Shown piece by piece: positions 1 to 59,399 of a DNA stretch of 64,000 nucleotides (the stretch's first letter is position 1; every line of letters begins with the position of its first letter). The stretch covers positions 868,001 through 932,000 of the forward strand of contig RSEE01000003.1 in assembly GCA_003971905.1 (NCBI GenBank). The letters are read 5' to 3'. The position numbers and the translations under genes are program-made. The stretch comes from Moniliella sp. 'wahieum'. Taxonomy: Eukaryota. The notes beneath the pieces are model-generated. The model had not been told where the DNA came from, did not search any database, and saw nothing but the letters and a program-made list of their open reading frames with translations.

Positions 1-776
1 TGTAATGATCCAGGCCGAAGGCAAGGGTCCCCGCTCCACACGTTCGTTTTGCCTGGGATTCACTGCGGCGAGTCAGAAGAGCAGGCCCTCGTAGTATGAG
101 CCTCTAAATAGACTATACGGAGATTTACATTGTGCGCACCTTCCTCCTCGGTTCCGCAGTGGCAGGTGCCTACGAAAGGCGTGTGCTGAATGAGGTGGAG
201 AATAGGGAATGTGGTACTGAGGAGAGGTACAGGCTATGAGAAGGGTGGGGCCTTATATTGCCAATGAGGGTACCGGGGAACAGAAGAACGACTGGGGTGC
301 AGTGATAAGAGATGTGTGTCTAATAGATATTATCACGCAGGATGTGGCGTTTTGGGGTCATCGCCGCAACAGCCCACCAGGACTGGGTAGGGACGAGGCG
401 AAGAAGAAGAATGGGCACCAGCAGGGATGCCGTGGTCCGAGCAGAGTGTAACCCAGTCTTCATTCCTGGATCAACTTCTTTCTCTTCTCTCGCGCTTTTC
501 CCTTTTGCCATATATGTGGTCTGTGTTTGTCCGCCCCCGGAACAATCATGTGCAGAAAGACCGTAAACAGTAAATGTCTAGAAGTACATCTGCATGTATA
601 GTCTCACACCACTGCTACAATTGAAAACAAATACGGCAGAAGCCTCTACAACCACTTAAGTGCTTGTCTTTTAAGCATGTCCTGTGTGACATGTGACGTT
701 CGGTTCTATATGGTGCGAACAGGGCCAAGGAATGAGGCTTACGTTTAAGCTGTTTAAAAACCCTAAGACTCCCTAC

Positions 777-829
777 TAAGTACTAAGGCCTAAGGGGCCT
801 AAGGCCTAAGGGGCCTAAGGCCTAAGGCC
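777..829. repeat. TAA-GTAC-TAA / (TAA-GGCC)n array with GG interruptions
   Basis: TAAGTACTAAGGCCTAAGGGGCCTAAGGCCTAAGGGGCCTAAGGCCTAAGGCC read directly. Confidence 0.88.
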
Positions 830-2044
830 CGATGCTGATTTGAGGAGAAACGGCAGATTGTGGCAAAATTGTGGTTCGCGCGGGGATAAAGGAGAGAGAG
901 AAACCTTAATTGAGACATGTATACCCGGAATGAAGTCAAAGTGGAAGAGCGAGAAGCGGAAGGCACGAAGCGCGAGGCGCAGATGACTGTGTTGGAGTGT
1001 TGGAGGAAGGATGCAGCGAGGACGGGTTCAGATAAGGGAAAATGCCATGCAGAAGTGGGCGGGGAAACCATCAAGTGAGTCATGCGTGACGCGTATGACA
1101 TGGGAGCCAACTTCAAAGTCTGTGTGGTTCCAATAAGGAAAGTTCAACATGCCACCAGAGTTGGACAACATTCCTCTGATAGCGCTTCTCCTCAGGGGCC
1201 TCAGGGCCTTAGGCCTCTTCACTACACACACAACCCCCCAAAAAGTTGTTTCAATCTTAGCATGTTGTATCCGTTCAAAAAAGAACTTTGTGAAGATCTT
1301 TTTAGAAGCGCGAGAAAATAGAAAAGAGCATTGAGGAGACTGTGTTCGTCATATGGCCGTCGGTGATCGATGACGGTCACTAGGTCACTGACCGCCACAG
1401 TTCCATACACGCACAACCTCATATATGTCAGTGTTACTCTCTAGGTCTCTCTCAGAGTTTAGACGTCTCCGTCACTAGCTTCACTCCATAATCGGCACAC
1501 GCGGAACTTACGCACCGTGTCCGCCAAAAGTACATACATCTTTTGTGTTGTGTCCCGTGAGATTTTAGGCCTTAGATATGTGGAAGGTCGGCTGCCCTCT
1601 GTTGTGTTATGAGCGCAGAGCATGACATTGTTGTCGTTTTACCTGCCTGCCACTGCACAATTGAACAGGCGAGGCAGGTGGCACACTGCCCCCGTGCGAA
1701 GGTGGCGGAGCACGGGCAAATGCGTGATTATATAACAAGCAAGAAATAGTCTTGTCTCGTTATTTTCGCTTTATATATATTCCAGCGGTCCGCACGGACA
1801 TTGCTGTGGTTGCCGCCCCCCACCCCCCCGTGCAGCAGACCACCGCTGGTGTTGATGCGAACACCACTGCGCTCAACATGTCAACTGCCACCATCGCCAC
1901 CGCCCCCTACTCGCCCAGTTCCCTCACCCCCACGGCGGCCTCGTCCCTCCAACACCGTCGACTAGTAGTACTAGTACACCTGCCGGTACACCCAACCCTG
2001 GCACGCGTCCCGCTCATCGGCAGAGCGCTACGTCCCTGGCACAT

Positions 2045-6063: not shown

Positions 6064-7713
6064 AGGGAGATAGGTTGGAGAGGCGGAGGAACGGTTGCAG
6101 AGAAAGAGGGGGAAGCAAAGCTGCTGGGGAGAAGAGTAACGATCTACAAAAACACCGCGATATATAGCCCCGTATTACAGTTGAGCCCGCACCTACAACC
6201 GAGCTCATGATGCATGACACCGATCCATGGCAGGTCCGTGCGTCTGCACGGCCCATTTCCACTGACGGAGGGCTGACACGCGACAGCGCCAACCAAACCG
6301 AATCTCACCTGAGAGCGCAGCTGCCTTCATGCTTCAGCCGCAAAAAGTGAGTCGGGGAAGAAGGATATCCCGACTGAGTATTGAAGCACAATGAGGGGGG
6401 GCTCCGCGAGGAGAGTGGTCCAAGATGGCGTGGCTGAACAGGTGCTCAAATTGGCGGTGGTTTGTGCCTCCGCCAGTCTCTGCTCTTCAGGCGTTTTGGC
6501 CAGAGGCGTGAATGTTAGGGGGCAGGCACGGGGGACGATCGGCCTGATCACTCAGTACAACATCCGCGCTCAGCCTCAGGGCCTCGTGGTGCGCTCATAT
6601 CCCAGCAGTAAGCCAATCATGTAATCATGCCCTGGGCTCATATCTCTGGCCTCTGGCCTCTGATCCAAACTATCGATCCGTAGGGGCTCATATCTCGCGC
6701 GACTACGATGGCGGCTAGCGCTTCGTTGCACTTGCTCCAGTCCCTGCGCCCACTTGCGCCCACACCAAGACCTGTGAGGCGTAGCGCGTAGGAGGGCGTA
6801 GGCCTAACGTCACATGGTGCGCCCAGCTTGAGAACGCTCAGGCGCTCAGGCTCGCTCAGCGCCGATATATCACTGTGGCGGCAGGGCGGTTGTGGCGCCG
6901 ACAGATGGTGGCGATGGTGATGAATTAGACCATGGAACCAAATCCCATACACCTCTAGAGAGCCCCCGTGCGCCACAGTGCATATTTTATCCACGCTGCA
7001 TTTGATTCGACTCGAAGAGTGGCTTCATGTTGCGCAGCGCTTCAATTTTTTACGCCGGCATCATTAAACTGACGACAGCCCTGGAAGTGTGATGTGATCC
7101 ATGTGATGTCCGACATGTGTCTCTGGGCCAAGCGCCCAGGGCTTGCTGCGGTCTGCTATCCAACTCTTCAGCCACAGTGCTGCTCTTCTGTGCTTGCTTT
7201 TTCAGCTTCAGCAGCTTCAGCTTGGGCACCTAGCCAAGCTTAGCTACCATCGATTCAAGAGTGGGTCAAGCATTATGGTACTGGGCAACTTGTGCGCTTC
7301 CCGCCTTTCCTTGTTTCCTTGGGCTTTTCCACTGGGGCACGAGTCTTAAACGTTACAAACGGGAGCCCTAAAGTAAAGTGACGAGTGACTAGTGACGTCA
7401 CCAGTCACTAGTCACTAGCCTCCGTTCCGCTGCATACGCGTGTGCCCCTATAATTCATCCAGTTCCGCCCCGTTCCTCTCCGCTTCCGTCGAGCGCTTCA
7501 TGCTTCAAGCCGGTCAGGCACCTGTGCATTCGGAATCGGCAGGACTCGGAGTACACGGCCATGCCATCCAGGTCATCTTTATCTCTTCTCTGGTGTGTAT
7601 ACGCGTACGCCTGGGTTGACCAGTAGCTAGTAGCCTCCGATGTGTGAAAGCCCCAAGATCATGCATCACCATATCACCAACCAACCAACCTCCCATCAAT
7701 GCATGGTCGATGA

Positions 7714-7740
7714 TGATCGATGATCGATGATCGATGATCT
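7714..7740. repeat. Heptamer array (TGATCGA)x3+
   Basis: Read directly. Confidence 0.88.
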
Positions 7741-9698: not shown

Positions 9699-10427
9699 TG
9701 CGGGGGAAATATGGTGGATGCCACGAATCGGTGTTAGGATCTTGCGAGCCCCTTTTCTCCCCTATATACCCTATGGTCAGGCCAGTGCTTCGGGGGGAGG
9801 CGTGGTGGTTGGTACCGCGGACGCCTTGGTGAACGGTTGGAGAGACCAACCTGTGCTGCACTCTGCATCCTCAGCGCCTCAGCGCTCATTTTCTCATTAT
9901 CGATTATCCATGCCTCATATGTTGCAGGTTATCTATATTCAGCTTACTGGCATACTGCATGATGATTTGGAAGAGTGTGTTAATGGCAGTGCTCCTACTG
10001 GGCCTCCGACTGATGTGGGCACCAACGATGTACAATCCATCAACAAATCTGGCCATGGCATGCAATATCTCGAGCGACGGGTTTGTCGCCAACAATCCGG
10101 GGGAACTGTAGTGGACATGATGACGAGCAGGGGGGGGGGGGTGTTACGGTGTGTTCGACAGTATGTAATAGTACTGTAGTAGTAGTATGCGATTGCTTTT
10201 GCCGTGCAGACATGAAAAGGGGACAATACGTTATGGTGGATCGGGTGCGTGGAGGCCACAGTAGGAGAAAGAGAACTGGCAGGTTGAAAGATGCGTAGTA
10301 GTACAGCCGAACGTGCACCGGGATCGTTGAACTCCGACCGTTGACGGTACGATGATAGTTGACGACGTTGACGAGAGACGCAACACTAAGCGCTGGGATT
10401 GGCGAGATGTGGGAATAGAACAGATCG

Positions 10428-13975: not shown

Positions 13976-16900
13976 GGCGAATAGCGCAGCAACGATGGTG
14001 ACGGTGGTGGTGGTGTGGTCGAAGGGGAAGGCGATGCAGATAAGAGGAGAAGCCGGTAAATCATATGATAGCCAGCTGGCACTCTGCCAACACGGAGGTG
14101 CCGAATATAAGGAGAGACCCCAGATTTGCTTGGCAAATGTGAAGTAGCGCGTTTTTCTTGGACGGTGTGGCAGTGTGGGGAGTGCTGTGTGTCGTGGAGG
14201 CGGCGGGATTGAGTCTGAGATCTGAAACGATCTTTTTCACCATCATCGGGAACGGTGCTCCGAATGTCGATGGGATGATCGGTGGCCGGTGGACTGAGCT
14301 GGGCAGGCTGAGGCGCTCAGCGCTTACGCGCTTACGCTCAGTACTGGTGGACTGAGTGTGCCGTTGAAGTTCAAGATCGCTCAGCATCATATGTCGGCGT
14401 CCCGCACATCCATGGCACCATCACCAGTCCAGATCACCATCACCAGTACAGGTCACCATCACCTTTGTTCCCTCCCCATCAATATTCAATGCATCAAGAA
14501 GATGATCAATGGTCAATGACGCGGGTGACGCGTGGCAGGTGACCTGATGACGTAGCATGGAAGAGTAGTGCGAAACGCGTAACGCGTAACGAGCGTAACG
14601 CATCCGTGTTTGCCTCTGCCCTTCTGCACCTGAGACCGCTTCAGATCTCAAATCTCTGATCCATGCTTCTATGATTCGCTGTATTACCGGGTGCGTGTTT
14701 CGGCTACCACCACACCCAACTTCGACTGGACTGTCCAGCCATGTCCAGCCTCGCATGTCTCATGCACTACCTCATGTGTCACAGCGGGTGGAAGCGCCAC
14801 TTATCCTGACGCCTGAGGCCTGACGCTTCACACTTATGCAGCGCTTTTGAAGACTGTGAGGTACCCGTGCTCTTCGCCCACTCACCTTCTCTCCCGCGTC
14901 TGTCCATCAGAGTTCCATGATGCATGATGCATGCATGATGCATGACATACATGACGTATTGCCAAATCACACACTGCTGGTATCACACTGCCGCATCTGA
15001 GATGTTCGCAGGGCCGCTGTAGTGACTAGTGACGGGTGAACTCACCGTTGAACGGTTAATCACTTAATCACTACTGAGTCACGAGTACCTAGTACCTAGT
15101 AACCTCGGGCCCCTCTAGGCCTCGCTTTTTGGCTCGCCCTAGGCGGTTGATATGTAGTCCCCCCCTTCTCCCCTGCTAAGGTACCTGTATTCCCGACCTA
15201 CTTGTTTGCGTCTTACAATCGATAATCGTGCATACGACACCGCTTCATACACTCGTGCATCATATTGCACAGACGTAATTCGCATGCTGTGGGCGACGAG
15301 GCATCATATGGTGTGGGATGTTGGGTGTTTTACTCTCGCTTCATATCCTCTCTCTTCAAGCTTCAAGCAGGCATCAAACAATTGCCAACATGAATGCTGG
15401 ATGTATGTTTGTAGTGTCGTCATGAATCTGGGGTGTTCACTATAGTCACTATCATCTCGCACCTCAAGCAGTGTGAGGACACATCAGAGGGCACACCTCT
15501 CGGCACACACTCTCAACACGATCATATGTTGGCTGTATAAAGCAACAACCACATGATCGATGGAGGTGTGTGATGCAGGCGTGCAGCCGGTGTGACCAAT
15601 GACTTCATTAATGACCGGTGTCGTTGACCCCGTTAGCCATATATGGTGTTTGTTTGTCTTGCGCCAAAAAGGTCGATCGCAGTTCTGTACCATGATCTCG
15701 ATGACCTTGATGATCAAGCTTCAAGCCTCAATCTTCAAGCCACAACAGAAGTTGATATAGGGCGTAAGGGGGAGAAAGAAGAGGTGACATGTGACAAAGG
15801 ATGAGGGGTATTGCCACGGTCTTGTTCCTGTTATTAGGTAAAATCCGGGTAGAAAAAGAGTTGAGACGTATATATATAAGGGAAGGATTTGGATTCTCCA
15901 TCGAAACCCCAGCCGAAAGGGTCAAAAGCGACACCAACATCTGCCCTCATCCAGACCTAGTACAATGACATGCGCGTTGTACGGGACCTACTGTATACAC
16001 TGCAAGTCAAAACAAAAGTATAGACCAAGCTGTGAGATCGTGCGATTTTGGGGTAGATTATCCCACCGCTTCGTCCTTTGTAGAGAAGGGACGGGGCTGA
16101 CATCAGACCTCTTAATCTACACCCAGTTCAAGTGGAACGTATGGGCGGTCTTCCTCTTCCATGGGTACCAATCTGTGGAGGGGAATGTCGTGTGCGCCTG
16201 CGAATTTACCGAGTCCATGCAGTAGGGTGTTCAGTATTCTTATATAGTAGGTCATGGAGCATCCGCGTGGAAACCGGTAGTATGCCAGGCTCCTACTGTC
16301 CGGTTAAGTTGGGTCCTCTTCGGCGAGGAAGGTGGGAGGGGGGGGGGGGGGGGCACCAGCTTGAACATGCATTGTGGCATTCGAATGCAGTCGTGTCATA
16401 TGTTCAGCAGACAGCCGCTGTCACAGTCGGGGCTAAGGCGAGGGAGACCAGGATCGGACTAGGCCAAGGGGTGTAGCAATCGTTCGTGGGGAAGAAGCAA
16501 GAACAGAGGACATGGTGCGAAGTGGAAGGAACAGGGAAGGAGCGAGACGCTCGAGACGAAGAAATTGGAAATGGGAGCGAGATCAGCCAAACTATGACAG
16601 CCGCCCCAATTATAAGTTTAGAGGCGCTGCCCAGGTCGTATACCCATCCCAGGTCAATCAGCGTTCCAGCCACCCGTTTGTTCTTTCTTCTGTCGTTGTC
16701 GCATCGTCAACCCCCCATCCCCACCCCAATCCCCCGCACCGCATCTCGTACTGCGGCGGGAAAGGGAAGCTGCACCGTGGGAGAGGCATCCGTTAACAAA
16801 TCACCGTCGCAGAAGAACAATCTTGCCAATGAAAGGAAATGAAATGAGAGGGCGGCCTGTTGCACCGACATGTGGACACCGGAAGCCGGGGTCTTGGCCC

Positions 16901-22980: not shown

Positions 22981-24160
22981 GGCGGGGAAGAGGATGACGA
23001 GCGGCTGGAAGATGGGAGCAAGCGAGGGGACACGGCAGGCAGGGGCCAGACTGGAAGAGGAGCGGTATGAAGCTTGAAGACGCCGGGGGCGGGACCTGGT
23101 GGGACCCGGTTGGGCGCACAGGGCAGGCGAAGTGTCCGTAGGGTGCGTGCATTATGCATCAAATTGCAGCCGGCCCACCGTGACAGATGCAACCCCCGCC
23201 GTCCGTGGCGAAGGGCAAGACAGATGCGAAGACGGGCAATATGCTTTGTGCTGTTCTAAGGGCGATCGCAGAGGGGGCTGGTGCCCCGACGGCAACAATG
23301 CACATCTCAGCCCGATGATCGGTGATTGATCGATCAGATCGTCAGAACCGATCAGGCCCAGGGCCTCGCCGTGCTGCGCTCCGTACTCAGTCGGAGCGCT
23401 GCTCAGTCATTCGGTCTAGTAACGCTAGTAACTAGTGACTCAGTAGGCAGTCGGAGTACTGCTTCGTATCGCCAGTTAGTGCCCAGCGCCCAGGACGCAG
23501 TCTCTCAGTACTGAGACACCGTCCCCAGCGGAGTGTGGATTCGATGAATATGAGTACGAAATTTGAAGACGCGTTGCGGCTGCGACACGGCACAGCGCCT
23601 CCATGCCGCATTGTTCCCCCCAGGCACCCAAGACCCCAGCCAGGGCTGCTGCGTGGGCGACGTGCGGGCCATGGCGCTTTTCTTTTGATGACTTTCGATG
23701 GTCGCTGCCGGTGACTGGCCCGGCCTCTTTGGTCGCCTGCTTTGGAGCATGGTCCGGACATTGGCCGGTGCCGGGGACGGTCATGGGATGGGCCAGACGG
23801 CAGGCTTGCCTAGTAGCTACTAGCTCCGACTAGTTCCGCAGGAAAGCTACTGCCTGCTACTGCACGTCACATGTCACATCGCAGCGGAGCGCGAGCTAGG
23901 AGTGGGCAGCAGCTAAAAATGCGCTCACACCACCCACCCAAGACGCACAAAAGCTTGCCGCCATTGGTGTATGGCAGGCCTGCGTTAGAAGCAGATGTCT
24001 GATGTCTGATGCATGACATGAAGCAAGTGCGTACTTAGTTCTTGCTTACTAGGTACAGGGTACGTACACTGAGCGCGAGCCGAGCATTGAATATGACATG
24101 CTAGTACCGCGTTGCGGCCTGTTGCGGCCCGTTGTGCGTGTTGCGGCGGCTGGGGCTGCT

Positions 24161-24190: not shown

Positions 24191-27100
24191 GTGACAGTCC
24201 TGCTGCCCAGCCACAGCGGGACAATCCACCAGCTGCTTTCAGATCCCAGGATCTCACATGTCGCATGTCACATGTCACACCTCTAAGCTTTGCAACTGCA
24301 CCCCGCCTTCCGCCTCTGCGTGGCTGGGGTGGAGCCAGTTGGGCGTGCTGGGCGTGCTATGACGTACCTTGCGCTGGGCCAGTCGGGTCCCTTGTTCTGT
24401 GGCTCCATGTCCCAGATGGCTTCCTTCAAGCTTCACGCAAATGCAGCACATGCGTCGCACGCCAACGACGTTGCCCGCCAAAAGCCAAATTGGGTTCATT
24501 ACAACGCCGAAGCGCAGCCAGGGCGCTCACTCGCCCCATTTCAATTGAAACCTTCGGAGCTTCGGCGTTTTTAGTACTTTCTCTGAGTACTGAGTACTAG
24601 CCCTGTTAGGGTGTTCACTGGTTCTTAGGCCTTGCGCTTGGGGCGTTATGCGTACGCGTTATGCGCTTCGCCTTACGCCCGTATAAACTTTTTATACATG
24701 CAACGGATTGCCACACCAAGTGATAATAGCCCTCTGCCGCCAGCGGGAGGAATGGGCCCACCCCGACAGCCTTCGGGTGGGTGGCGCCGGCTGAAGTTGG
24801 CGTGGGAACGTAGAGCTTGAAAGTTGCGGTTCTGTTCCAGATTTTATGTTGCCTCCATCAGCGAGTGCAACAACGCAGCACGTTGTGGTGGGTGTGTACA
24901 TTTTAACACTGGAATTCGAGCAGGGCCCATGCGGGGGGAGAAGGTGCGCTGGCCAGAGGCAGAGAATCGTAGTATGCAATGGCGGCCAATTCCGCGTTGG
25001 CATAGTCGGCCACAGACGGCGATTACCCAGCCGCGCCTCCACATTCTCCGTCAAATACACACCCCACCACCCCACCCCCTGCCCTCTCGTCCACGTTCTC
25101 ATCCAAGCAGTGCTTAATATTACATGGAACCCGTGTGCCGGTCTCCCACACAGCATCACACCGACATCCAATTGGACGGCAACAGGGAGTACCTCATGTC
25201 AAATTACATCTCTTCTTTTGCGTACTTCGACTATAGGTCGGGGGAATCCGGACAGCTTAATCTCCCCGTCATGCATCCCTCCGGCTCAGGCGCGAAGATC
25301 GCGACACGTTTTTAGCGATCTGTCCGCTCATTCCCACTGTCATCGCACATAAGTATGCGTCCCACAAACAAACTCTCTCTGTGTGGGTACACGACCGGCG
25401 GAAGCCGTAGTGCCTTGGCTCACACTCAGACCGTCACGGAATATTGATTGACTGCTCCACCAGCTCCACCTCTTTGCCTATAACCCCCCCCGCGCGCACA
25501 CACACCCACGCCATATATGCAGGACATGCACAGTGGTCTGTGCGCTGTAGTCGGTATTCAATAGCTCCCACCGCTCTCGCACGGGGCACAGCTCACACAG
25601 TATATTGTACCATTTCACCTTGTTCGGTACCGCCAGTCAGTCGGAATGCTTTTGCGTCTGACGGATCCGACCGACGTCCATGTCACATGTCATGGGTCGA
25701 TCACACACTGCGCAGTTGTCGCCTCTTTTTGCGTCGTTACTTTGGATATTTTGCCCTCATCGGCCTCATCCCAGGGACCTGTGAGCACCCTGAGAACCCT
25801 GAGCGGCCTGAGCCTCAGGCCCCAGGGAAAAAATCGCAGACCATCGAGATCCTCTCGTTTAGCGGACCATCAGCGTTCAAGCTGTGCATCGCTCCCCGGC
25901 GCCCCTGGTACCATTTCCAAGGAGATGCGAGAACATCTCCGAGTATTCTATAGTGTTCCTCTGAAGAGAGTTACCGATTACTGTTGGATACCATCGTCAC
26001 CGCGCGTCACCGTCAACGGCCTCTCGGCTCCACATTACACATTGGCAGCATATCTCCCCACTCAGCTCAGCTGAGCGATCAGGTTCCGCGCTCTGGATGT
26101 CTTTCCCTCGCTCGGCACCAAAATGCACATGTCCCCATCTTATTTCGACATACGAAAAGTACCATGAACATGTTAGGTGAAACCCTTTTACAACGTGAGT
26201 GTGGAGCATGTGGATCCTGGGAAACACGTCCCTATATAACCTTACTAATGTATTGGCACTGTGAGCATCTGGCAGAGTCCTCAATACTAACTTGCTACTA
26301 ATACTAGGCCGAAAGGGCAAATGGTTGCGCCTCTGCTCTTCGGCTTTCCTTTGTTCATAATCGTCTGGCCAATATTGTCTGACAGACCTTTTTCCCCCGC
26401 CCCCTCGCTTCTTTTCTTGTCTCATGCATTATGTCTTTTGCTCTCAACTAATATAAAAGTACGCGACATGTATCTCGCTCCCTCACGAAGACATTACAAA
26501 ATCAGCTCCCCTCATACCATACAGGCTTCTGTTCTTTCTCACACCTTATCTTGACTTTTGGGACAATGTTATACAATCCTTTTAGTAACAGGCTCCATGA
26601 CGATCAATGATCTCGATCATCATCTGACCCATTATGCATTATCTGATATCTCCTGTGGGGACCGCGACGCCTTTCCTTATGTGGCCCTACTACAGTAGAG
26701 TAATTGAACGAGGGCTCTGCCGCCCGTCTCGTGTGCCGAGCCCAGGACAAAGTCACCTAAGAGTACACACAGACTACAGAGGATTACCATAAACGAGGGG
26801 ACCACCGGGCTTACATCTGGGTCTGCTGCGGCTTCGCCCCAGTCTGTGTCCTCGTGCTGACGGCGACGGCCCACGGCTATCTTTACCTCCTTCGTCCGCC
26901 GTTCCATCGTCTACCGTTCCATCGCCCACGCTATCCACCGACCCAGCATGCAAAACATGGGTTATAAGATTCCATCCTATTTTCGCGACTGGTGGCATAT
27001 AGTATGCTGTTGCGGTGTCAGTAGGCAAAGAATGGCAATCAATAGCAGGAACGCGTGCCTGGAGTGATACTCACAGCCTCAGAGCGCATTTCGTACTTGA

Positions 27101-32718: not shown

Positions 32719-32907
32719 TCACATGTCACATGTCACATGTCACACGAACGCTGGAAGAGGCAAGGCAAGGCAAGGCAAAAGGCAAGTGAGTGGCAAGGCT
32801 CCCGCGATCGGCTCAACAACGCTCAACAACGAACGCTCAAGTTGAGCGCACTCAAGTTGAGTTCAACTTGACGTTCAAACTTCAAGCTTCAAGCTTCAAG
32901 CTTCAAG
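32719..32907. repeat. Heptamer palindrome arrays (TCACATG)x3+ and (TCAAGCT)x3+
   Basis: 32719-32744 and 32881-32907, read directly. Confidence 0.9.
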
Positions 32908-33498
32908 AGATGAGAATTCGGGCCGTGGCGCGTGGCAGCGTTTGCGCTGCCACAGGCTGAGGCTCAGTCACTCAGCCTCGCCTCAGCGCCAAACATGAAT
33001 CAACCTCATTGATCCTCAAGTCGAGGTAGGCCAATGCGCTGATGTGGTAGCCTGATATAGATGTTCGCCTAGCCTACACGCATGCATATGGGAAGCACGG
33101 CGCCAACCCACCCGTGCGCAGGGGCCATAGCGGTCACATGTCGCAGCGCGGCGGCCGGTGCGAATGGGGCGGCATTCGTCAAGTGCGGATGGTACTTCGG
33201 CTGAGCGCAGCAACGAAGATTGAAATTGATTGAACGTTGAATTGAACGTTTAACGTTCACTGTTCAATTTGAATGTCCAGCGCGTCCAGCTGGCTATGTT
33301 GAAATTGAATTGAAATCAGTGGAATGCAACTACGTGTAGCGATAGCTCGAACTCCCCTGTGGGAGTTTTGCGGACATATATAGAGCAGTCGCTCCCACGC
33401 TCGGAGCGACGCGAATCCAAAGGGAGACGAAGTGGCCAACCCCCGGGGCAATCTTCCAGGTGGTAATGTCGTAATCGGCGTAACCAGCAACCCCGCTG

Positions 33499-33536
33499 TA
33501 ACGCGTAACGCGTAACCGGTAACGGGTAACCGGTAA
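33499..33536. repeat. Heptamer array TAA-CGCG-TAA-CGCG-TAA-CCGG-TAA-CGGG-TAA-CCGG-TAA
   Basis: Read directly. Confidence 0.9.
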
Positions 33537-33802
33537 CCCAGCCTCGCCCGAACCTTTTCTGTACCCCAGGATTATACTGAGAACATGTCCAGGATTGAAA
33601 GGTTGAACGCGCAGCTGGAGTGTTGCTGTCATGTACGTACGCGGGCCAACAAGTCAATTGCTCATCAGAACTGCTGAACCCCAGACGCTCACGGCGCCAC
33701 AGCGAGCGGGGTTTCCAACACAAAAGAAACTTCCATTGGCACCCCAGTGCTGGCCGCCGCTGTCTATCCCCGCTCCTTCTACTCGACCGCCACCAGCACC
33801 TG

Positions 33803-34781: not shown

Positions 34782-35248
34782 GCATCGATGGGACCTTGTA
34801 GTCTCCATCGATCTTGCTCCTGTGATCTGGGACTATCTATTTCGACATGATGCGGGTGCGTGGTGCATGGTGCATGGTGCATGGCGCTTGCTTTGAAAGG
34901 CACAGCATGAGCGATAAGCAATGGCTCTAAAACGAAGAAAAAATGTGCACAAAATCGACCGAGACAACATGATACAGGTTATGCACTGAGGGACGGCTCT
35001 TCAAAGGCAACAAAAGGTGCAAAGCAAGGCACCAACAGACGGCACAAGAGAGATGCGAAAGAGAGAGATAGCAAAAGGGATTAAGTGGGTTTCCAAAAGG
35101 GGCAAGCCGAAGAAAGGAAGCCGAAGAGGGCAAGTCGAATCAAGGAAGTCGAATAAAGTTGAACAAAGGAAGTCGAACAAAAAAGGCGTGGGAGGAAAGT
35201 ACTGAGATGGGGCGAGAAAATAGGTGGCTTTGCATAGAAGTTTCCGAC

Positions 35249-40690: not shown

Positions 40691-43468
40691 CTTGTTGCTG
40701 GTGGTGGGTGCAACGTCACGCTGGAGACTTGGTCCAGCTAAAGAAAATTAAAAGGGCTGGTCTCAGGTGCATTTTTTTGCACCGATGCACCACGAGAAAG
40801 GCTGAGCGCTGGCACATGACGGGTCACGTGCCACACTTGTCATGCCACATGTCACGTGTCACGATGGCGTAGCCAGCCGAACTTGAAGTTTCAAATATCC
40901 CACTATCGGCGCCATATCGGCTGGCGCTGGTCTTTACTATCTTCGCTACTGCACTTTTTTGCGGCTATATACATGCACCTGCTTCTATAACTAGGGGTGG
41001 TCCTCCGCACGAGTACTTGTACGCTGTCCACTAGTCACTAATGTTGGAGTGTGGTGGCATGTGGCACTTGATCAGCCATGTCGCTGTTGGCAAGCGGAAC
41101 TATCTACAGAGTTCATCCACGACTCTCGCCCGCTCTGGATTGGTTACCGTCGCGCCTCGTTCCCCTCCTTCCTCTTCTCCCTGTTGCATTCGAGGTCGAA
41201 CTAACGTGAGTAGCTTACGAGAAACAGTGCATTCGTCTTTAGCTGGTAAGGTAGCTACTTCTCAGTTGATGGACAACCGCGGTTCTGGGCTCTCTTCATT
41301 GGTGTGACCGATTTATCGCGCTCACCCATTGATCTCTCTCCAGTCTAGAGCTTCCCCCTATAGCCCTCATTCTTTCAACTAGTAGCTGGTACTGCGTCTG
41401 CTGTTGGCCTCGGAAACACATCCAAACGGACTCTGCAGCGGTGGCAGAGGAGAAGGGTGTGTATACTATAGCGTTTGACATATATATATGGCGTCTCTCT
41501 TCTCGGAGACAAAGGGCACGCCAGGGAAAACACCCTATAGGCGAAAATGAAGAAGCCATCAGTAGCATGATGTGGCGCTGTTCCCGGGCGACTCCGGAAA
41601 CTTGCATCGCATAGGAAGAAGGGGTAAGTCCGTGGGACTCCTTGCTGAAAGAGACAGAGTGTGGCACCCACTTTGAAGCATGTGTGGGCGTATATAGCTG
41701 TGGAGGGAGTAGTGTTCCATTGCACAATATAGTATTTGGCACCAAACGGAAGACGGATCGGAGAGAAACGAGACGGAGAATACGTGTGGTGTAGTAGGTA
41801 AGGTTCATGCGGGAGATACTTGAAGGCCACACTGGAGACTACAGGGACTGTCGGCGTCACGAAGATGTTATGCATTATGGGGGGTGGCGCGGGACACTTC
41901 TCTCATGGCTCTCGGCGGGCGAGGTTGAGGCGAGTGCCACTGGAAATGCCACGTATTTCCCAAAAGTGCCCTGATTCATGAGCAGAGTTTGCCTTCAAGT
42001 TGGGAGCCTTGCTATGTGCACTCCGGTGAACGTTAAAGGAGGGACTGGAAGAACTGAGGGATGGGTGGGCTTGCTCCACTTCGGTCTGGCAAATCACAGG
42101 CATCACGGTTTTTTCACATGCCCACATAGCGCGTCCACACAAAGATGGCGTGCGTGACAGAGCACACAGTGTAGTGTTCGCGAGTAAGTACTAAGTCAAC
42201 ATTGGAAGGATACTAGGAAGATCAGGCCGGTTAGATACCGGTCAGGCAAGATTGGTCCAGACCGTAGAGTACTGTGCGTCCCTTCCCCAATTTAGTGGCG
42301 ATCACAAGTAGAGATCTCTTGGTCCAGAGGGGTAAGCCGCAGGCTCTGATCTTTTCTGTCTAAGATCTAATGAGATCTGAGATCTGAGAGCACTTCAATA
42401 TTCAATGCAGCCACTTTTAACCACCACAATCATTCAAAGAACATCACAATGTGGGGAGATGCAGTTTTAACGTCAGATTTTGCAGATTCGGCTGTGCTCT
42501 AGCAAGCGCCGATTACATGTTACAAAGAGGACGATCATCAATCATCCCCCACACAGTATCACGGGGAGCACCCAAGGTCCGTTTTTTCGCCTCCGTCATA
42601 TGAAGAAGACTAGTAATATATGCAAGCTGCAGACACCACAGAACCCATAAAACTGTTAAGAATATGTCGGTGCCAATGCCGGACCGTAGCCTGATGGTGG
42701 TCCCCCCGTGGAGTTTATAGGAGGAGTATCTCAGCGAACAAAGGTCCGAACTGCGACAGTTACGTATACTTTAACTGGGTTTGGTGGTGAATCCGAGCGG
42801 GAATACGAAAAGAGAGGTCAAAAAAGAGGACTCGGACTATGGACTCCGCCAGGGGCTCGCGCGCTCATGATCACCTCCCGGTCCGTCTTGGGGGAACAGT
42901 TTGTACAGTGTGGCGGAAAAGACCTTGTTGTGGCGATGGCTCTCAGATCTCATCGTCATTCACATGCCCACTTTTTCACACGACCTTTTTGTTTGGAAAT
43001 GAGAGAATGGCGTGAGCCAAGAGAGAGGGTGTTGATATCTGTGTGTGCTGTTGGCGACGGAACGTCATTAAGATAATTGACATCCTGATCAGTGGGAGGG
43101 CGAAAGCTGACAGCAGACGCCGGATGAGCGACCCTAGTTTAGCAGAGTGAGCGATGGGCATCTTCGTCCCGGCGCTGTGGAGATTTTGCAGTAGATATGG
43201 TGCAGCTCTCCTCGTTTCGATCTTCTCAGACACCTCATTCATTGCCCGTAGTCGACGATAGAGAGGTGCGGTGTTGTACCTTCGCGGGGTAGTAACCACG
43301 CACAATGTATTATCAGGCCTCAGAGGCCTCAGATCTCAGATCTCAGAGCTTCACTTCCATGTTTTGTTCTCCGCGAGAGGCTGTTTTGTCAACGCTGGCA
43401 GAGCACATGTCAGCCGCTCAACAGCCCACCAGGTTCATATACCAACTGCGTTGATGGTATGTGCCATG

Positions 43469-43510
43469 TGCATGATGCATGATGCATGAACGTTGAACGT
43501 TGAACGTTCA
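43469..43510. repeat. Heptamer array (TGCA-TGA)x3 followed in phase by (ACGT-TGA)x2-ACGT-TCA
   Basis: Read directly. Confidence 0.9.
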
Positions 43511-44920
43511 AGTTGGACATCGACCGCATGCAGAAGACGCCCAAAACGGGGGGGGTGCCAAGGTTGATTGGATTCTAGGGGTGGGTGGGGGTAGGGAAGT
43601 CGGAAGGGTCAAATCTGAAAGCACGACTGTACAGCGGCGCCCCTCTCCACAGCCTTCCCCAGCTCGAAGGCTCAAACGTTCAAAAACGTCAAGCATCAAG
43701 TGCGTGGCCTGTTTCATGATGCATGATGGCATCATGATCGACATGATTGTGTGCGTTCCAGTGCGATGATGATCGATGATCAATGATAGGTTGGCGGACG
43801 GCGGCACAATCGACCACTATGCACTATTGCAAGTTGCCGTTTTTGCCTCCTCCTTGGTCTTGTGTCAGACAGGCACGCAAGCTTGAAGCTTGAGGCTTGA
43901 CTCCCCTAGTGCTGGGCATCGATTTGCCAAGAAAACGCGTGTACACTGCTCAGATGCCAGGCGTAGCCATGTGATGCATGTGACCTGTAACCCGGGTGCA
44001 CGTGACCAGCACCTCCAAGTACCTGCCCCCCCCCCTTTGACATTTGTGCAAATACGCTGCTGGCTCCTGTGTGGGTGGGGCTGTGGGATGTGGGCGCTCA
44101 GAATGTGAGGTCATTGACATTGACATGTTGGCATCATCCGCCATCTACCGGCCCTACTCCCTTCCTGTGATTGTCATGCCATCTAGTCAACAGCCTCTAA
44201 TGCAGCATTTTCACAATATTCCGCTCTGGCGCAAATCATGCGTTTTGCCATTGGTGACTAGGGTTTACAGTCTTGGCAAACGACGAGCTTACAGGTGGCA
44301 TCTTGGCGCAAGGCATCTCGGCAAAGTGTTTGTGTGCGTCTGAAAAAGTCGGTGGACGGCGCTCTGCGGCAGTCTTCCTCTTCCCTCCTTCCTACCCCAC
44401 ATGCTCCTCTCGGTTCCGGTGTGTGATAGATGGCGTTCGCTCCGTAGCTGTTGTGATCGATGATCGGAACGATGATCGATGCGACGATCTTTTCAGCTCC
44501 GAACGGGGGGGCGCAATTTGGGCAGGCACGCGGGCAGGATGTAGCTGCGAGATGCCCTGGGATGCTGTACTGGGATGTCTGCCGACCCATTTTTGTCGAT
44601 GAAGGTAGTCAACATTGAGTTCAACCTAGTCAGCACAGGCAGTTGCTAGTCAGATCCCAGATCCATTAATTGCCGTATATGGCCAGAGGTAACCAGGGTA
44701 CTAAGTACTAACCGGACTATAACTGCGGGAAGTAGAAGGCCGGTAACCGGGACACGGGATCCGCGTGTGCCGATGAGGTCGATGATCGATGTCGACGGGT
44801 CTTAAGCAGGTCGAACGAGGGTGCGTGCAGATCCTTAATGACAGGTGACATATGCGACAATCCAGGCCGTTTGAGGGGGGTTGGGGTGGCACTCTCAATG
44901 TGGTAATCGATAAATGATCA

Positions 44921-47299: not shown

Positions 47300-50200
47300 G
47301 CTGAGACTTTTTCGTTTACATACCGCGTCCGGGTTCCTTTTCGGTTCTTCCTTGAGCTGAAGCATAACTGCTGGCTTTATCTTTTGCGTCTGGGGCCCTT
47401 CCCCTCTCTGGCATTTCCACCGAGAGGCAACAAAAGGGCTTCTTGGGCATTGCTTCGCGCTGCCCTTGAACCCCCCTACCTTTTGTATACTATGATTCGG
47501 TCTGGTGTTGACCGTATTGGTTTAAACAGTCCATTGTGCACATGCCTTCTCTTCTGTGCCGATTGAATGGGTATTATTCTTGCGACATGTATACTTTCTT
47601 TATAGTCCCTTTCTTTATAGTCCCCTTTTTCGCACACACTTCTGTTGAGTAAAGGAATGGGCACTGCTCTGGCTTTTCTCCCTCTCTTCTCTGTCGTATA
47701 ATTTCCTCTGCTGTGTGATATGTGAAGCCTACATCATATCCCTCATTCCCCTAGGGTTGTATGCGCTAAACTGAACAACAACGCATGCTAAATTCAGCAG
47801 AAAAATGGGATCCAAGTATCCGCCTTGCCTTTGTACTGTCGGCCATGACTCGATGTACCTTGCATATGCCATGGCTTGCTATACTATGGATCCTATGACA
47901 GAGGTCAAAGGTAGAAACCAAGATCAATTCATAGTCGAGACAGACCAAACAAGTATACAAAACAAACACAACAGACTGCTTTGCAACAACGAGATCTCAG
48001 CAAAAGGAACATTATGAAGGCCCGCCATGGTCGCATGGGCTCATCGGTACGATGCTTTGTGCCCATTGCACCCAGTCTTCCCAGAACCCTTCCTGCTGCG
48101 CCCGACTACGCAGCGTCAGCGCCTTTGAGAGCATGGGATGGTGTGCATTACTCTTTGCCGCTCTGGAAAGTGCCCTGCATTCATCTGTTTATATTTCCTG
48201 CCATAAGACACTTGAGGACTGATTCCTTCTGTTATATATAAGTAGCCGTGTCTCTAAGGCTTGCTAGCTGTGGTCCTGGTCGACCATCATGTCTTCGGTC
48301 TCCCGACTCCCCGGTCCTCTCTCGCCCTTCCACCTTCTACCGCCCTTATGCTTATGAATTTACGACTTACGTTGAGTACGCTACAAGCCGGGGTTGCTTT
48401 TATCATAGTGCTTGCTCTTCTTTAGGACTCTGTCTGTTCCCGCCTACTACAGCGTACCGAGTGTGGTAACGCTGCGAGGAACAGAGTAACTTCGGAGCTC
48501 CTAGACCCCTTCAACTGGTCTGACGACTTACGTACGCGGCTCCAACCTCGGAGGGTCTGAGCTGCATCTCGGCCTTTGCACACAGGGAGCCGCCCAAAGA
48601 AGTGGGTTCCTCCCTCGTCTCTAACCCTCTCAGTTCAATCAGCATCTGAAGCAGGACCTAACGTACGAGATACCGATTGGCCTGTCCAAGGGTTTATACC
48701 CCCCTAAACTACAGGGGGGGTCCCACCTCGGAACTCCCCCATGACAGACGAGAGGCACCTCGCCCTCTGCTCGACCGGCACACGGCGACGGGGCATTGGA
48801 GCGACAGAGATGCCGATGAGGCAACCGCATCAGCACCACACACATCGTCGTCGTACGATACACTGGAACGTTCATCGTTCTATACCTGATGACCCCTGGA
48901 GTCCTGATGGTCCTCGAGGGTGATGCAATCGCACTGGTGGTGGTGGTGGTGTGGCAACCAGCAATACCTACTGAGGAACATCAAGCAGCGAGTCGCCATC
49001 AGGGGCTATGCGGGGGGACAAGGAGGGAAAACAGGAGAGGGGAAACAGCGGAACTCCTATTAGGCCTGAGGAGGAACTGAAGGGACATTGGCCAAAGCAC
49101 GAGCCAACCCTATAGCTCAACATTACCATGCTAAGCGCTAACCCTCCCCCCATCCGCTGAACGTGAAGACGCGGCTTGACTATAATGTGTTGGGCATACC
49201 GCAAAGTCCCTTCCGACTGTGTTTTTACCGCTCCACCGTCGCAACCTGGGGATGTGACGATGACCATCCCGAGTATACCGCATTCGCTTTCAACAGCCAC
49301 ACAGGAGCGCTGAAGCGCATGTGCGTTTATACTCTCTGACTGCCAAAAGCCTCTTTTTCAGTTTATTGACGATGCATGGAGAACAGTACCTAGTAACTAG
49401 TAAACCCGCGCTATCCGTTATCAACCACCGCTTTGCCACCACAAAACGTGTGGCATATGACGTTGACCACATCAGGGTCCGTTCAGGCCGCAGGGACCAC
49501 CGTCCGTGCGGTTGTGTCCCTTCAAGCTTCAAGCTTCACCCCTTACTAGTTACTCGTTGGGTAAAAGCAAAAATTATAGGCGTTTCAGTACTATAGGCCC
49601 TGCGCCTCTCGACTAATATTCTCGCTGCCTTCAATCGGCTGCTGCTCACATGTCACACCGTTTGCTGTAGTATAGGAGTTTTGTGCTTCTCCACAGGCGA
49701 GCGAAGCAAAGACGACCACCCCTTTTGGCGTGCCGTTGATAGAGGTGACGAACCTATATAGATCCTATATTTCATACAACCTAGGACGACTCCTTGGGCT
49801 TGACCGGTGACCCTTCACCAGCAAAAGATCATCGAGATTGACGCAGCCGCGAGCTTCTGCGGCTGCGTCTATAGAATGAGGTTAACGAGGGAGGCGCATA
49901 GGTAAAGCTTATACTATTACTATATAGAACGGCAAAATGGGGCATATAGGAATGGCATATAGGAAAACGCTTTATCGCCCACACACTATATATATTGGTC
50001 TCGCTCGGCCGGAATTTTGTTGCAACGAGGACAAATGACTTGCCTATCGTGTGGTGTACCTCTGCCTGCAGTGAGGCGCGCGTGGCCACATATACGTCCC
50101 CTGCAGCTGCTCTCCCCCCGCAATCGATCGTTTGATATGCGTTTCGCTCCTGTTGTGTCTCTATATACGCTTTTTCAGAGTGTACAATCCATTACTTTCT

Positions 50201-54100: not shown

Positions 54101-54126
54101 CTGCGTTCCTCCCCTCCTGTGCCTAA
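51126..54126 (+). CDS. Rho GTPase-activating protein with probable N-terminal FCH/F-BAR region (Rgd1-like)
   Basis: RhoGAP motifs FGVPL..PVMVRKCLAFL..LDTPGLYR..GN, VASLLKLYLRQLPIPL, LRAVLEHL, M..HNLARIFGP. N-terminal YFEARARIDRSYA..EAKQH fits FCH/F-BAR. Several introns; ends approximate. Confidence 0.8.
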
Positions 54127-55910: not shown

Positions 55911-57187
55911 AGTGTCTCCCTCTGGAGAGCACCTTACTTCCCTGGCCCTGTCCCACTGGGTGGCGCCCCTGGCGTGCCCGGCTAGGACCTGTGGCCGTCC
56001 ATGTTCTATGCCACGCAACCCCTTTCATATCGGTCTGTCGAGCTGAACGTTCATTCTGTTACCGCTGTGCTCGCAGTCCGCCCAGCATTTACCCTGACAT
56101 ACTTCCATAGTACCGCTCTACTCCCATCGGCTGGGACTTCCCACACAGGATATGACGTCTCCCTCCCCATCCCCCTCCCAAGCCATACAGGCCCTTTATG
56201 GAAAATGGGGGAAAGAGGACGGGTTGTTCGGTGGAAGTTCCCCACGTCTGTTGAATCAGGACCGAGTGGTCACCGCGGTTGTGGAGAGGCTACAGCAAAG
56301 AGGGACAGCGGGAGACAACTATGGAGAGCCTGAGACGATAGCCCAGGAGTGGCGACCCGGTCACGGAGGTGTGCGGGGCGCAGAAGCTGCTTGGCGATCA
56401 GTGTTTCTATCCCTTTGCGATTCCCCGCATCCCACCCGACTAGTTAGGACCAGCCTGCCCACCTACATGCATCTGGCCAACTTGTCTTGATTGAGAACCT
56501 GAGCTGATTGCGGATATACCTGGCAGGCCCGTCGGGGGGCCAAAGCCATGCCCCCAGTATATATCCCCACCCCCGTACGTCCCATATTCACTCCATCCAC
56601 CACCGCCCGGTCCCGGGCGTGCTTGGGCCCTTGGCCCTCCTTGGGTCGTTCACAGCTTCACAGAGCAAGTCTGAGGCCGCATTCGCCACCCGGCCCAACC
56701 CCGCTGTGGTTATATTGATTGCAGCCGAAGCTGAGTCAGAACGTGCTGAGTGGCGCAATGCGGAGAGAGCAGGCGAGTTACGAAGCTGGCAGCCCGCGTC
56801 GTCGACAATGAGCGACAGAACCCAACGGGGTGGGGGGAGAGGGAGACGGGGCGCAGCCATGCTGTTCGTGTTGAGGATGTCTGCCCAGTCTGTGGCGTAT
56901 CCCCTGGTGCAAGGCAAGTGCGAGCGCAGGTACAGGGGGTTGAACGGTGTTGGACGGGAATGGACACAGGAATTATACAGGTACCCGTGGGGTGGAGTGC
57001 AGCCTGGTGCCGCGCTGGGGTTGGCGGTTAGCGCGTGACGCGTGAGGCGCGAGTGCTGATATTTATAGCAGCCAGCCATGGCTGCAAGTTTAAATCGAGT
57101 TGGTTCGACGTGTTCAACGTTCAACTTGAACCTCCTGGCCGCCACCACCTCGCCCTAGCCCCTGGAGCGCCTCCACTTGTGCTGGGC

Positions 57188-58645
57188 ATGCCGCATGTCG
57201 TGGACGACGCGGAGCCTGGCTCTGCCCGCTCGACCACATCGTCTCAGTCCACCGTCACACTCCTCCCCACCACAGCGCATCCTTTCCCCTTCCACCTCGC
57301 GCGCCGTTGCCAGCCGCACTGCCCCAGCCCCCCTCAGCCTCGATGTGGACCTGCCACCGGTTGAGGAGCCTCGGCTGCCTCCTCCGCCCCCCCGTCCCCG
57401 CCCACAGGAAGGCCGTTCGCACCTCCCCGACCCGGTCAGCTACGGATCCAGTCTTCCCGGCTCGAGCATCTCTAGTTCGCTCCTCGAAACCGATACAGAA
57501 GCCGGGGAGAGCGGACTGACGTTCACGGGCTATTCCACCTTTCCAGTGTCGACGCCGAGTCGTCTGTCATGGGAGGCGCGCGGGCCGAGGGACGGAGAAA
57601 GAAGACCCGGAGAAGAAAACGCCCCCCGGAACCTGGAGTGCCATTTCCGAGCCAACCTGACCCTTCCAAGCCCCTGCGGCCAAGACACTACCGCAAACGC
57701 AAGGCCCAGCGCGGGTTGTCCGCTGGTTCCACCGCTCTGAAGGCATGTTCCTCTTTGCGCTGGCCCAAGTCTTTGTCGCAGCGTGCGTACCGCTCCTCGA
57801 TCTGGTGCAACTTAGTTTTCCCGAGATTGTTCTAGGAGAGATGAGTGTCGCCTCCTTTGGAGCCTTGCTGTTTCTTGTTGTAAGCCGGACCCCTGACCCG
57901 GTCTTGGGCCCTCCGGGGGTCCGTCTACTTCTCTTGCTTCGTGGGGCGCTGGGCGTAGTCACACTCTTTGGTCTGTCCCTCTCGCTCTCCTCGCTTCATA
58001 CCAGCGACACGGTAGCCCTTCTTTTTCTCGCGCCGGCCTTCACCTATTTCTCGGTGCCGCCCTGCTTGGCGAGCCCCTGTTTTTGCGCGAAGTACTGGGG
58101 TAAGTACGACGTTGGCCGGGGTGGTCTTGGTCACACACTTGGTCTTTATTCCATGAAGAGCCCGACCGGATTCCTGGGCTTCCTTGCCCTTGGTCCCTGG
58201 GGCCGTGGACGACGCCTTCAGGTCCCTGGGCCTCGCCTGAGGCGGGGATCGGTCTGGTTCTGCTCAGTACGCTCGGTTTGGCAGCAAGTTACATTACGGT
58301 ACGCAGGATTGGGACGCGTGCTTCGGCGGTTCAGAGCGTATGGTCCTACACCCTTCTAGCCACGGTTGTTCTGCTTCCATCCTTGGTGCTGGAATGCGCC
58401 TGCCCAGCGAAAAGGAAGCCGTCGTGCTCCTCCTCCTGGGCATCTTGACCTTGTCGTCAGAAACACTTATGGCGCTCGCGCTACAGCGCTCCAAGGCGGG
58501 TCGGGCCACCGCTGTTTTGCCCTTCCAATTGCTTTTTGTTCTTCTCATTCAGGCTGTACGCCTGCACCACTTCCCTCCCCTCGGTCTGCTAGGGGGGGCG
58601 CTGATCGTGCTTGGGGCCGGGTTGGTTTCCCTGGTGAAACAGTAA
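57188..58645 (+). CDS. EamA/DMT-superfamily membrane transporter
   Basis: Multiple TM segments; PVLGPPGVRLLLLLRGALG..SDTVALLFLAP and LALQRSKAGRAT..LGGALIV resemble fungal EamA-like transporters. Frameshifted; start approximate. Confidence 0.72.
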
Positions 58646-59399
58646 AACCTGGCCCGTGGATCGAATCGTGACCATCAAATTTTCCATGTGATCGCATGCA
58701 CCTGGCCATCCACTGCATCATTTCTCATCATTTTCAACTTTGTTTTTGCTTCAAGCTTCAAGCTTCCAACGCTCCATCCGCATTCCATTTGCCTGATCGG
58801 TCTGGTCTCTCTGCTCACTGTTACTTTATCTCCTCCATCCAATGGTTCTCCCCCTGCCCCATCCCCTCGGCTCAGCTCTGCCGCAGGACACAATTTGGCC
58901 GTCTGATCCTTTGGCGTTTTCCGGCTCTCTTTGCGTCCCCTCTTGGACTGCTTCATCCCACCCCACACGCCCCTTGGCCACAATTTCGGATTATAGGATT
59001 CAACAAGTGATGCATACGCGGTGGGACATTCCTCCTTCTATAATGTCAATCCATGACTTATGGCCGCCATCAACCGTTTGGCGACGAGACGATCAACCGA
59101 TTCCCTTTTGAGTGATCTACCCAGCCCACGACCAGACAGGGGTAGCTGCCCCCCAGCTCTGAGGGCAACCGCGAGAGACAGGCACGGTCTGCATACGAAG
59201 GTGTATCTCTGTATACACTAAGTACTCAGTGTGAGCTCCTATGTACCGGTTCGCTGCTAACTACGCAGTAGTGACTAGGGATTTCGGGTTTGACGCGAAC
59301 TGGGGCGGACGTAGGAATCGCAGCCCGCACTAAGTAGATTAATTTGCCCCAGGTAAAAGTATTGCTGGGATCAGCGGAAACACCAGCCTCGAAAAAAAA

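Follow-up and report, generated by a model that had tools for sequence, protein, structure and literature searches.

What process has written the short arrays of period 7 that lie between the genes of contig RSEE01000003.1 from the fungus Moniliella sp. 'wahieum'? We consider 64 kb of this contig (positions 868,001 to 932,000; henceforth the window, from whose first base all coordinates are counted). A first-pass annotation had proposed that many of these arrays share a rule rather than a sequence: a TNA triplet (N being any base), a tetramer that is its own reverse complement, and a second TNA. This rule, which we call the grammar, is real and far from random.

Enrichment of the grammar

Counts come from this one window, and the background for the 10-mers with TNA, ANT, CNG and GNC flanks from 100 order-3 Markov simulations. 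All 21 coordinates cited by the first-pass annotation read as TNA, the named palindromic tetramer and TNA. The whole window holds 104 such 10-mers, which form 74 clusters and use 15 of the 16 palindromic tetramers. The annotation had found 14, without AATT and TATA: AATT is indeed absent, but TATA is present once, between TNAs of unlike N, at 48232.

Most of the excess lies in 10-mers whose two TNAs carry the same N (85 observed against 1.9 ± 1.5 expected); those with unlike N are also enriched (19 against 4.8 ± 2.3). Palindromic tetramers between other flanks with the same N stand at background, whether the flank is ANT (2 against 1.7), CNG (4 against 5.3) or GNC (4 against 5.7), and over the full 4 × 4 matrix of flank letters T..A alone is enriched (85 against 2.4), the runner-up being T..G (10 against 4.3). 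The special status that the annotation gave to palindromic spacers holds when spacers are split by type: TNA pairs with the same N around a non-palindromic spacer number 59 against 28 expected, an excess that is equally modest for other flanks and reflects general 7-bp repeats.

Tandem repeats tell the same story. There are 49 perfect period-7 runs of 14 nt or more, with up to 4.0 head-to-tail copies; in 36 of them the unit is its own reverse complement save for the central base, and 34 of these 36 have T..A. The combination of T.A and a palindromic tetramer is thus common to 34 of 49 runs, against ~3% by chance. Simulation gives 3.35 perfect period-7 runs of this length, and 0.25 symmetric ones. 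Symmetric units at other periods are at or below chance (period 5, 18/94; period 6, 3/49; period 8, 0/8; period 9, 1/10). Ordinary slippage from a single seed cannot yield this, as the annotation had argued: the grammar is common to unrelated units and is found at period 7 only. The 13 period-7 runs outside the grammar, about fourfold over simulation, belong to the general background of short tandem repeats that other periods show as well. Arrays of this non-grammar kind include TGGTGCA, CTCTGGC and GATGTCT (34861-34884, 6644-6662, 23994-24011).

An unforced search, for any word W followed by the complement of W's end and then W again, is enriched essentially only where the lengths sum to 7: counts are 61 and 60 against 3.7 for k4m3, 75 and 76 against 4.0 and 5.1 for k5m2, and 76 and 77 against 4.5 and 5.2 for k6m1. 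T (101/121) and A (113/121) emerge from this search without being imposed.

Anatomy and placement of the repeat

Of the 104 pairs of neighbouring TNAs, 85 share the same N, 7 have complementary Ns and 12 some other combination. The structure is a direct 7-bp repeat of an odd-palindrome unit, y'x'-T-N-A-x-y (x' and y' being the complements of x and y), and not a 10-bp palindrome. Each unit has the two dyad axes that the first-pass annotation described: the first lies within the tetramer, the second on N.

The 73 runs are mostly short: five are of 10 nt, four of 11, twenty of 12, ten of 13, thirteen of 14, and twenty-one of 15-28 nt, with long runs favouring 19 and 26 nt, that is, 5 + 7k. The commonest form is an isolated 12-mer with random flanks, TNAxy·y'x'·TNAxy, in which a 5-base word W (TNAxy) is followed by two bases complementary to W's end and then by W again; 18 of the 20 12-mers are TNA-xyy'x'-TNA-xy or its reverse complement, in 10 and 8 instances. 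Because this form predominates, the tetramer is to be seen as the two bases after TNA plus their complement. The spacer y'x' is complementary to the preceding xy in 101 matches, against 0.24 expected, and the half-palindrome is always 2 bases long: complements 3 or 4 bases long are absent (0-2 matches), TNA at lag 5 is barely raised (39 against 28.3 expected), a full 6- or 8-nt palindrome lies between TNAs only once each among 72 and 51 pairs, and palindromes of 2, 6 and 8 nt are not enriched.

Decay of long arrays does not account for the isolated short runs (n = 30), because their flanks agree with the period only at chance level (0.267, against a background of 0.26-0.295). In runs of 14 nt or more (n = 21) the flanks are partly periodic (0.384). 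At some loci extra bases are kept before the second TNA: for prefixes of 0 to 6 bases the loci number 52, 6, 10, 2, 1, 0 and 0, as in cTCAGC-gc-cTCAGC (period 8) and gcTGAAG-ct-gcTGAAG (period 9). Prefix and TNAxy together make 5 to 7 bases that are repeated directly on both sides of the joint.

The basic event is therefore TNAxy -> TNAxy-y'x'-TNAxy, a gain of 7 bp in which N and xy are whatever the site held. N tracks background (C or G in 51 of 73 runs, 70%, against 69.5% of noncoding-like TNA sites); a candidate strand bias of N between TAA and TTA, 8 versus 0 in long runs, was rejected, the count being 15 versus 8 over all matches. The 14 cores found in runs broadly mirror how often each dinucleotide follows TNA in the background, save that AT-only cores are rare (4/73 against 21% of background). 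The palindrome is made from arbitrary local sequence and must therefore be generated by copying, with 2 and at most 3 complement-copied bases per event. Some 73 of about 2,200 TNAxy sites are affected (about 3%), and ~4% of noncoding-like positions are related by a 7-bp repeat. In compound arrays the core switches at 2-4 positions together while TNA is retained; it looks as though the final TNA of the earlier array, together with the next two flank bases, had served as the seed of a new event.

In the predicted secondary structures a 5-bp stem is capped by TNA as the triloop, with energies of -1.8 to -5 kcal/mol for single arrays. Two of the seven grammar arrays folded beat dinucleotide shuffles (no more than 6 of 200 fold as well), whereas the other five are no better than them (12-128 of 200). 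The predicted energies are weak, and strong hairpins were ruled out as the driver for that reason. The annotation had suggested fold-back synthesis or repair through a hairpin intermediate. The latter fits well, but iterative fold-back of the whole unit, or rolling-hairpin copying, is excluded, because N is copied (same 85, complementary 7) and not alternated with its complement.

The annotation had also placed the arrays at gene flanks and not within coding sequence. Our coding proxy combines the longest stop-free frame over each base with the 3-periodicity of base composition; it is crude and contains no gene models, and it was used in place of a self-trained codon model, which was dropped after drifting to GC-rich low-complexity frames. 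By this crude measure the placement is borne out: for 10 of 60 clusters both flanks fall within stop-free frames 450 nt or longer, against 58.5% of random positions. Lag-7 identity in noncoding-like DNA (23,387 bases) is 0.295, against ~0.263 at neighbouring lags, and coding-like DNA has identity peaks at multiples of 3 only. Grammar runs span 1,030 bases, 799 of them noncoding-like.

By eye, many arrays lie between divergently oriented open reading frames (ORFs) or a few hundred bases upstream of an ORF start. The array at 6206-6217 precedes an alcohol dehydrogenase gene, that at 33498-33538 precedes an ORF starting at ~33620, and those at 57032-57125 precede an ORF at 57159. Local spread or copying of arrays with the same core was ruled out: 13 such pairs lie within 1 kb of each other, against 12.9 expected by chance. 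The principal arrays, to which no strand is assigned, are as follows.

685..697: TGACATG run, 13 nt
774..829: compound array, TAAGTAC x2, then TAAGGCC units interleaved with 9-mers TAAGGGGCC
1188..1217: period-8/9 variant, ccTGAGG cc ccTGAGG, with two bases retained ahead of TNA
7384..7418: TGACTAG run adjoining an inverted TCACTAG run, a near-palindrome and the sole abutting inverted pair found
7712..7739: TGATCGA x4, 28 nt, one of the two longest arrays
9869..9908: period-8 variant, cTCAGC gc cTCAGC, and a TTATCGA run
14574..14591: TAACGCG run, 18 nt
14916..14945: TGATGCA runs, one TGCA core duplicated
15020..15033: TGACTAG x2
15354..15368: TCAAGCT x2
15714..15726: TCAAGCT run, then degenerate units
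23866..23879: TCACATG x2
24264..24279: TCACATG run, 16 nt
24583..24598: TGAGTAC run, 16 nt
32276..32289: TCATTAA x2, with a rare AT-only core; second copy at 32440-32453
32522..32537: TCATGCA run, 16 nt
32719..32744: TCACATG x3.7, 26 nt (5 + 3x7), canonical end phase
32880..32907: TCAAGCT x4, 28 nt
33498..33538: compound array, TAACGCG passing to TAACCGG, same N throughout
42359..42389: TAAGATC run, then TGAGATC x2.7
43313..43347: TCAGGCC, a 9-mer variant, then TCAGATC x2.9
43469..43508: TGATGCA x3 passing directly to TGAACGT x3; all four core positions change, TGA is retained
43715..43781: TGATGCA x2 and TGATCGA x2
44698..44711: TAAGTAC x2
49390..49403: TAACTAG x2
49520..49554: TCAAGCT x2.7 (19 nt) and a TTACTAG 12-mer
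57032..57045: TGACGCG x2
57112..57125: TCAACGT x2
58748..58766: TCAAGCT run, 19 nt

Similar heptamers are found elsewhere. The 19-mer TCAAGCT x2.7 occurs in prokaryote genomes at more than 121 loci, with many Pseudomonas, Stutzerimonas, Halopseudomonas or Xanthomonas among the matches listed. The 121 listed loci contain 218 period-7 runs, of which one obeys the grammar with a non-AGCT core. Judged by their sequence make-up, the prokaryote TCAAGCT arrays are a different phenomenon. Many of the 45 arrays viewed have complementary units after a spacer, which could pair as a hairpin. Known bacterial heptamer repeats (AAGC-type in Pseudomonas and relatives; those of Xanthomonas and Nostoc, PMC4692102) are like the present arrays in their period of 7 and their intergenic position. 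The prokaryote loci listed differ in that neighbouring units are AAGC-NNN variants, and many of the arrays viewed have complementary units after a spacer (a possible hairpin). Heptamer arrays of the bacterial kind would be paired with an inverted array as a long hairpin, with one unit family per genome; the window has a single abutting inverted pair and 14 cores.

The same query met at least 121 loci in metagenome contigs, mostly bacteria-like. Over the 121 listed loci, grammar matches with other cores number 46 against 31.6 ± 6.3. Eukaryote-like contigs, picked post hoc, carry several non-AGCT cores: 6 in 8.6 kb (L001), 5 in 20 kb (L072) and 3 in 4 kb (L068). These counts are only suggestive, but the process may be more widespread in basidiomycetes at lower intensity. 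No Pfam match was found in 8 ORFs of L001. An ORF at 18617-20017 of L072 encodes a Transposase_21 protein (CACTA/En-Spm type) whose nearest Atlas clusters are mostly of Basidiomycota, with no link to the arrays established. Two pairs of near-identical contigs (L101 and L121, L046 and L074) differ by 7-bp indels, and by five successive units changed in concert (TCAAGCC versus TCAAGCT). The full-text literature, with subscription journals and supplements outside its scope, yielded no description of the TNA-palindrome grammar, and the heptamer runs that the annotation attributed to Ustilago were not verified there.

Proposed excision scars and rival explanations

The reading that we favour, with something short of even confidence, is that TNA-centred breaks with a 7-bp stagger were repaired and left the arrays as scars, the hairpin-capped ends having been opened 2 nt from the tip to give P nucleotides. 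Excision of a cut-and-paste transposon that duplicates nnTNAnn on insertion would have this outcome. A dimeric DDE-type enzyme would cut its target with a 7-bp stagger centred on T-N-A, yielding the target duplication nnTNAnn. Departure of the inserted element would leave each flank covalently sealed into a hairpin, as hAT, Mutator-like and Transib/RAG enzymes do, and a host nuclease would nick each hairpin 2 nt from its tip, exposing a self-complementary 4-nt 3' overhang, xy y'x', of the same origin as the P nucleotides of V(D)J joints. End joining would then retain one overhang and trim the other flush to TNA, giving period 7; partial trimming would give periods 8 and 9. Where the target already reads y'x'TNAxy, both overhangs would be identical and cohesive, and each visit would add one clean +7 unit. 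Arrays would grow by such clean units because every TNA inside an array lies in y'x'TNAxy, and they would remain homogeneous; slippage may also add or remove units. T..A would be the target preference of the enzyme, and promoter DNA would be hit because it is open.

The invariant 2-base complement at the joint between direct repeats is the P-nucleotide signature. The retained prefix drops after 2 nt, and its maximal form, abTNAxy (7 bp, symmetric about N), is what a 7-bp duplicated target predicts; the two orientations of the 12-mer (10 and 8) are expected equally by the scar model. Artemis-type nucleases prefer the +2 position on hairpins. Enzymes of the hAT, Transib, RAG and Mutator-like element (MULE) groups make hairpins on flanking DNA, which host enzymes open (PMC5499845, in part). 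When Ac/Ds excises in Candida and yeast, resolution of the hairpins inserts palindromic P nucleotides, and two footprints predominate (PMC5873905, in part). As far as these two partial sources go, the footprints of hAT, Mutator-like and Transib/RAG systems resemble the arrays in their direct target repeats and complementary bases at the joint, in the recurrence of a few predominant products and in their promoter-proximal sites.

Several points weigh against excision scars. Inverted termini flanked by identical nnTNAnn 7-mers gave one weak candidate in the 64 kb (11/14, likely chance), and none of 106 ORF translations matched a transposase family, 22 overlapping ORFs of at least 150 aa not having been scanned. 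At ~1 scar per kb, stacked up to 4 units, the reading implies tens of thousands of fixed events genome-wide, with no element seen in the window; known hairpin-type footprints are not of this kind. Plain duplication without P nucleotides is not enriched, TNA occurring in 5 of the 13 non-grammar period-7 runs, which is about chance. The depletion of AT-only cores (4/73 against 21%) is explained only loosely, through weak cohesive ends. Transib duplicates 5 bp of its target, and among the described superfamilies we are aware of none in which a 7-bp duplication goes together with flank hairpins. The duplication inferred here is of 7 bp and centred on TNA, unlike the 8 bp of hAT and the 8-10 bp of MULEs (PMC5499845, in part). 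Again unlike the present scars, which have an even-centred joint with exactly 2 P bases and are extremely uniform, hAT hairpins give odd-centred palindromes and Ac/Ds leaves 28 footprint types in Candida (PMC5873905, in part).

A 69-nt stretch at 24499-24573, with 12/14 inverted ends and TTA on both sides, adjoins several arrays. It was rejected as a candidate element, about one such match being expected by chance (estimate).

The main rival to the scar model is a template switch during replication, which needs no transposon and which we regard as possible, though rather doubtful. A nascent strand that has passed TNAxy would turn, copy 2-3 complementary bases, re-pair through T and recopy NAxy, gaining 7 bp; slippage would later alter the number of units. 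The product, TNAxy-y'x'-TNAxy, is identical, y'x' (possibly plus T) being the complement of the adjacent (A)xy, and a one-base T microhomology accounts for the dominance of period 7. A pre-existing y'x'TNAxy, with 3 nt of microhomology, would give 14-nt runs, of which 6 are seen against ~1.5 by chance (an estimate). Short-range template switches and quasi-palindrome mutations are an accepted source of clustered changes and inverted repeats near promoters, including those of yeast, and like the present events they copy a few complementary-strand bases and make small palindromes (PMC5453318 and PMC13100816, each in part). Yet microhomology alone predicts ANT, CNG and GNC equally, and all three are at background; the model does not fix the turn at exactly 2 nt after TNA, nor does it explain why loci that retain a prefix of 2 bases (10 of them) outnumber those with prefix 1 (6) or prefix 3 (2). 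Template switches are normally variable in length and have no fixed anchor, whereas here the TNA anchor, the 2-nt offset and the 7-bp gain are invariant. Ordinary microsatellites, in which random 7-bp proto-repeats appear everywhere but expand and persist only where the unit forms a mini-hairpin (2-5 bp stem, TNA triloop) that escapes mismatch repair or slips often, seem improbable. Heptanucleotide microsatellites do share with the arrays their head-to-tail units, low copy number and noncoding position; the predicted folds put TNA in the triloop, the flanks of the longer runs (14 nt and up) are partly periodic, and the near-identical metagenome contigs with TCAAGCT arrays differ by gains or losses of 7-bp units and by concerted changes. 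What slippage leaves unexplained is the birth of the arrays: 39 of the 73 runs fall short of two units and have clean random flanks, the chance expectation being ~2, and unlike microsatellites they have fixed end phases and a grammar common to 14-15 units. The hairpins are moreover weak, five of seven being no better than shuffles. GNA loops are the most stable triloops; they or longer palindromes would be favoured, and neither is enriched (G..A 5 against 4.1).

Selection on cis-elements seems quite improbable, whether these be sites for dimeric or multimeric promoter proteins or three-frame stop or insulator elements in 5' leaders. The arrays do cluster upstream of ORF starts and between divergent ORFs, and each TNA is a stop codon on one strand; but there are 14 different cores, core and N frequencies both track background, TAG-type stops are outside the grammar, and N mismatches (19/104) suggest neutral decay. 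The annotation's dimeric protein reading TSA-N4-TSA is unlikely for the same reasons: a dimer's site array would have a conserved inverted half-site, whereas this is a direct repeat with free N and nearly arbitrary cores, in which half-sites are not symmetric. We give very little weight to footprints of the PIF/Harbinger type, the annotation's other proposal, in which a 3-bp TNA duplication encloses a tetramer formed by two terminal bases left behind from each inverted end. PIF/Harbinger and IS5-type elements duplicate TNA at their targets, so that T-N-A marks the site in both cases, and inverted termini would give a palindromic tetramer. But 14-15 families with different termini would be needed, TNATNA is not enriched (48 against 43.2 at lag 3), and N is mostly C or G, where PIF/Harbinger elements prefer A or T. 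That the core is continuous with the host flank for at least 2 bases in 64 of 73 runs, unlike transposon ends, largely refutes this explanation; a 7-bp duplication centred on TNA fits better than one of 3 bp. An assembly or base-calling artefact is likewise very improbable. The two copies of a long terminal repeat (LTR) element described below are set apart by many single-base homopolymer indels, a possible sign of an unpolished long-read assembly; however, we know of no error mode that makes sequence-specific 7-bp insertions confined to noncoding DNA, and the grammar recurs with other cores on the unrelated contigs L001, L068 and L072 (~0.05 per kb expected). The remaining weight goes to some explanation outside those listed.

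What would be new here is the building of microsatellite-like arrays from P-nucleotide or templated-insertion scars, with a fair chance of a new enzyme or element behind them. More specifically, and as a possibility about which we are doubtful, the agent could be an undescribed cut-and-paste system that makes 7-bp staggered, TNA-centred cuts with hairpin-capped ends in promoter DNA, either a new DNA-transposon lineage or a domesticated transposase-like nuclease, whose scars, piled up as it returned again and again to the palindromes it had made, would have built a measurable share of the intergenic DNA. Such chemistry, if true, would add a new member or variant to the RAG, hAT and Mutator-like enzymes. 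The scars would amount to a clean record, made by nature in a fungus, of hairpins opened at +2, and promoter 'microsatellites' could then arise from repeated excision and not from slippage, which bears on promoter DNA turnover in compact fungal genomes. If a template switch is responsible instead, it would be to our knowledge the first with a strict sequence anchor. Either way, TNAxy-y'x'-TNAxy offers a simple genome-wide marker for dating and counting events in smut-related fungi.

Genes and a repeated element in the window

G+C is 57% across the window, whose proteins are eukaryotic and whose genes are split by introns. They include an alcohol dehydrogenase, a RING protein, DUF1765, ribosomal protein S19e, RasGEF, KRE6/SKN1, a DEAD-box helicase of the SPB4 type, RhoGAP, NAC and a Mac-type acetyltransferase. 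Among the matches listed, the KRE6 exon is closest to Tilletiaria anomala (68% identity), followed by Sporisorium, Ustilago, Moesziomyces, Testicularia, Violaceomyces and other Ustilaginomycotina (59-65%); similarity of the dehydrogenase likewise points to Ustilaginomycotina. On this protein similarity the source is identified as an Ustilaginomycotina fungus, a relative of Ustilago with no close sequenced relative in the collection compared.

Two inverted copies of a ~1.4-kb element are present at 20366-21764 and 44920-46303. Each has ~245-bp direct terminal repeats with TG...CA ends, an internal 20-bp tandem repeat and its own 5-bp duplication (TTCCC and TGATC); the copies differ mainly by single-base homopolymer indels. 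The element looks like a small non-autonomous LTR retroelement, similar to terminal-repeat retrotransposons in miniature (TRIM-like).

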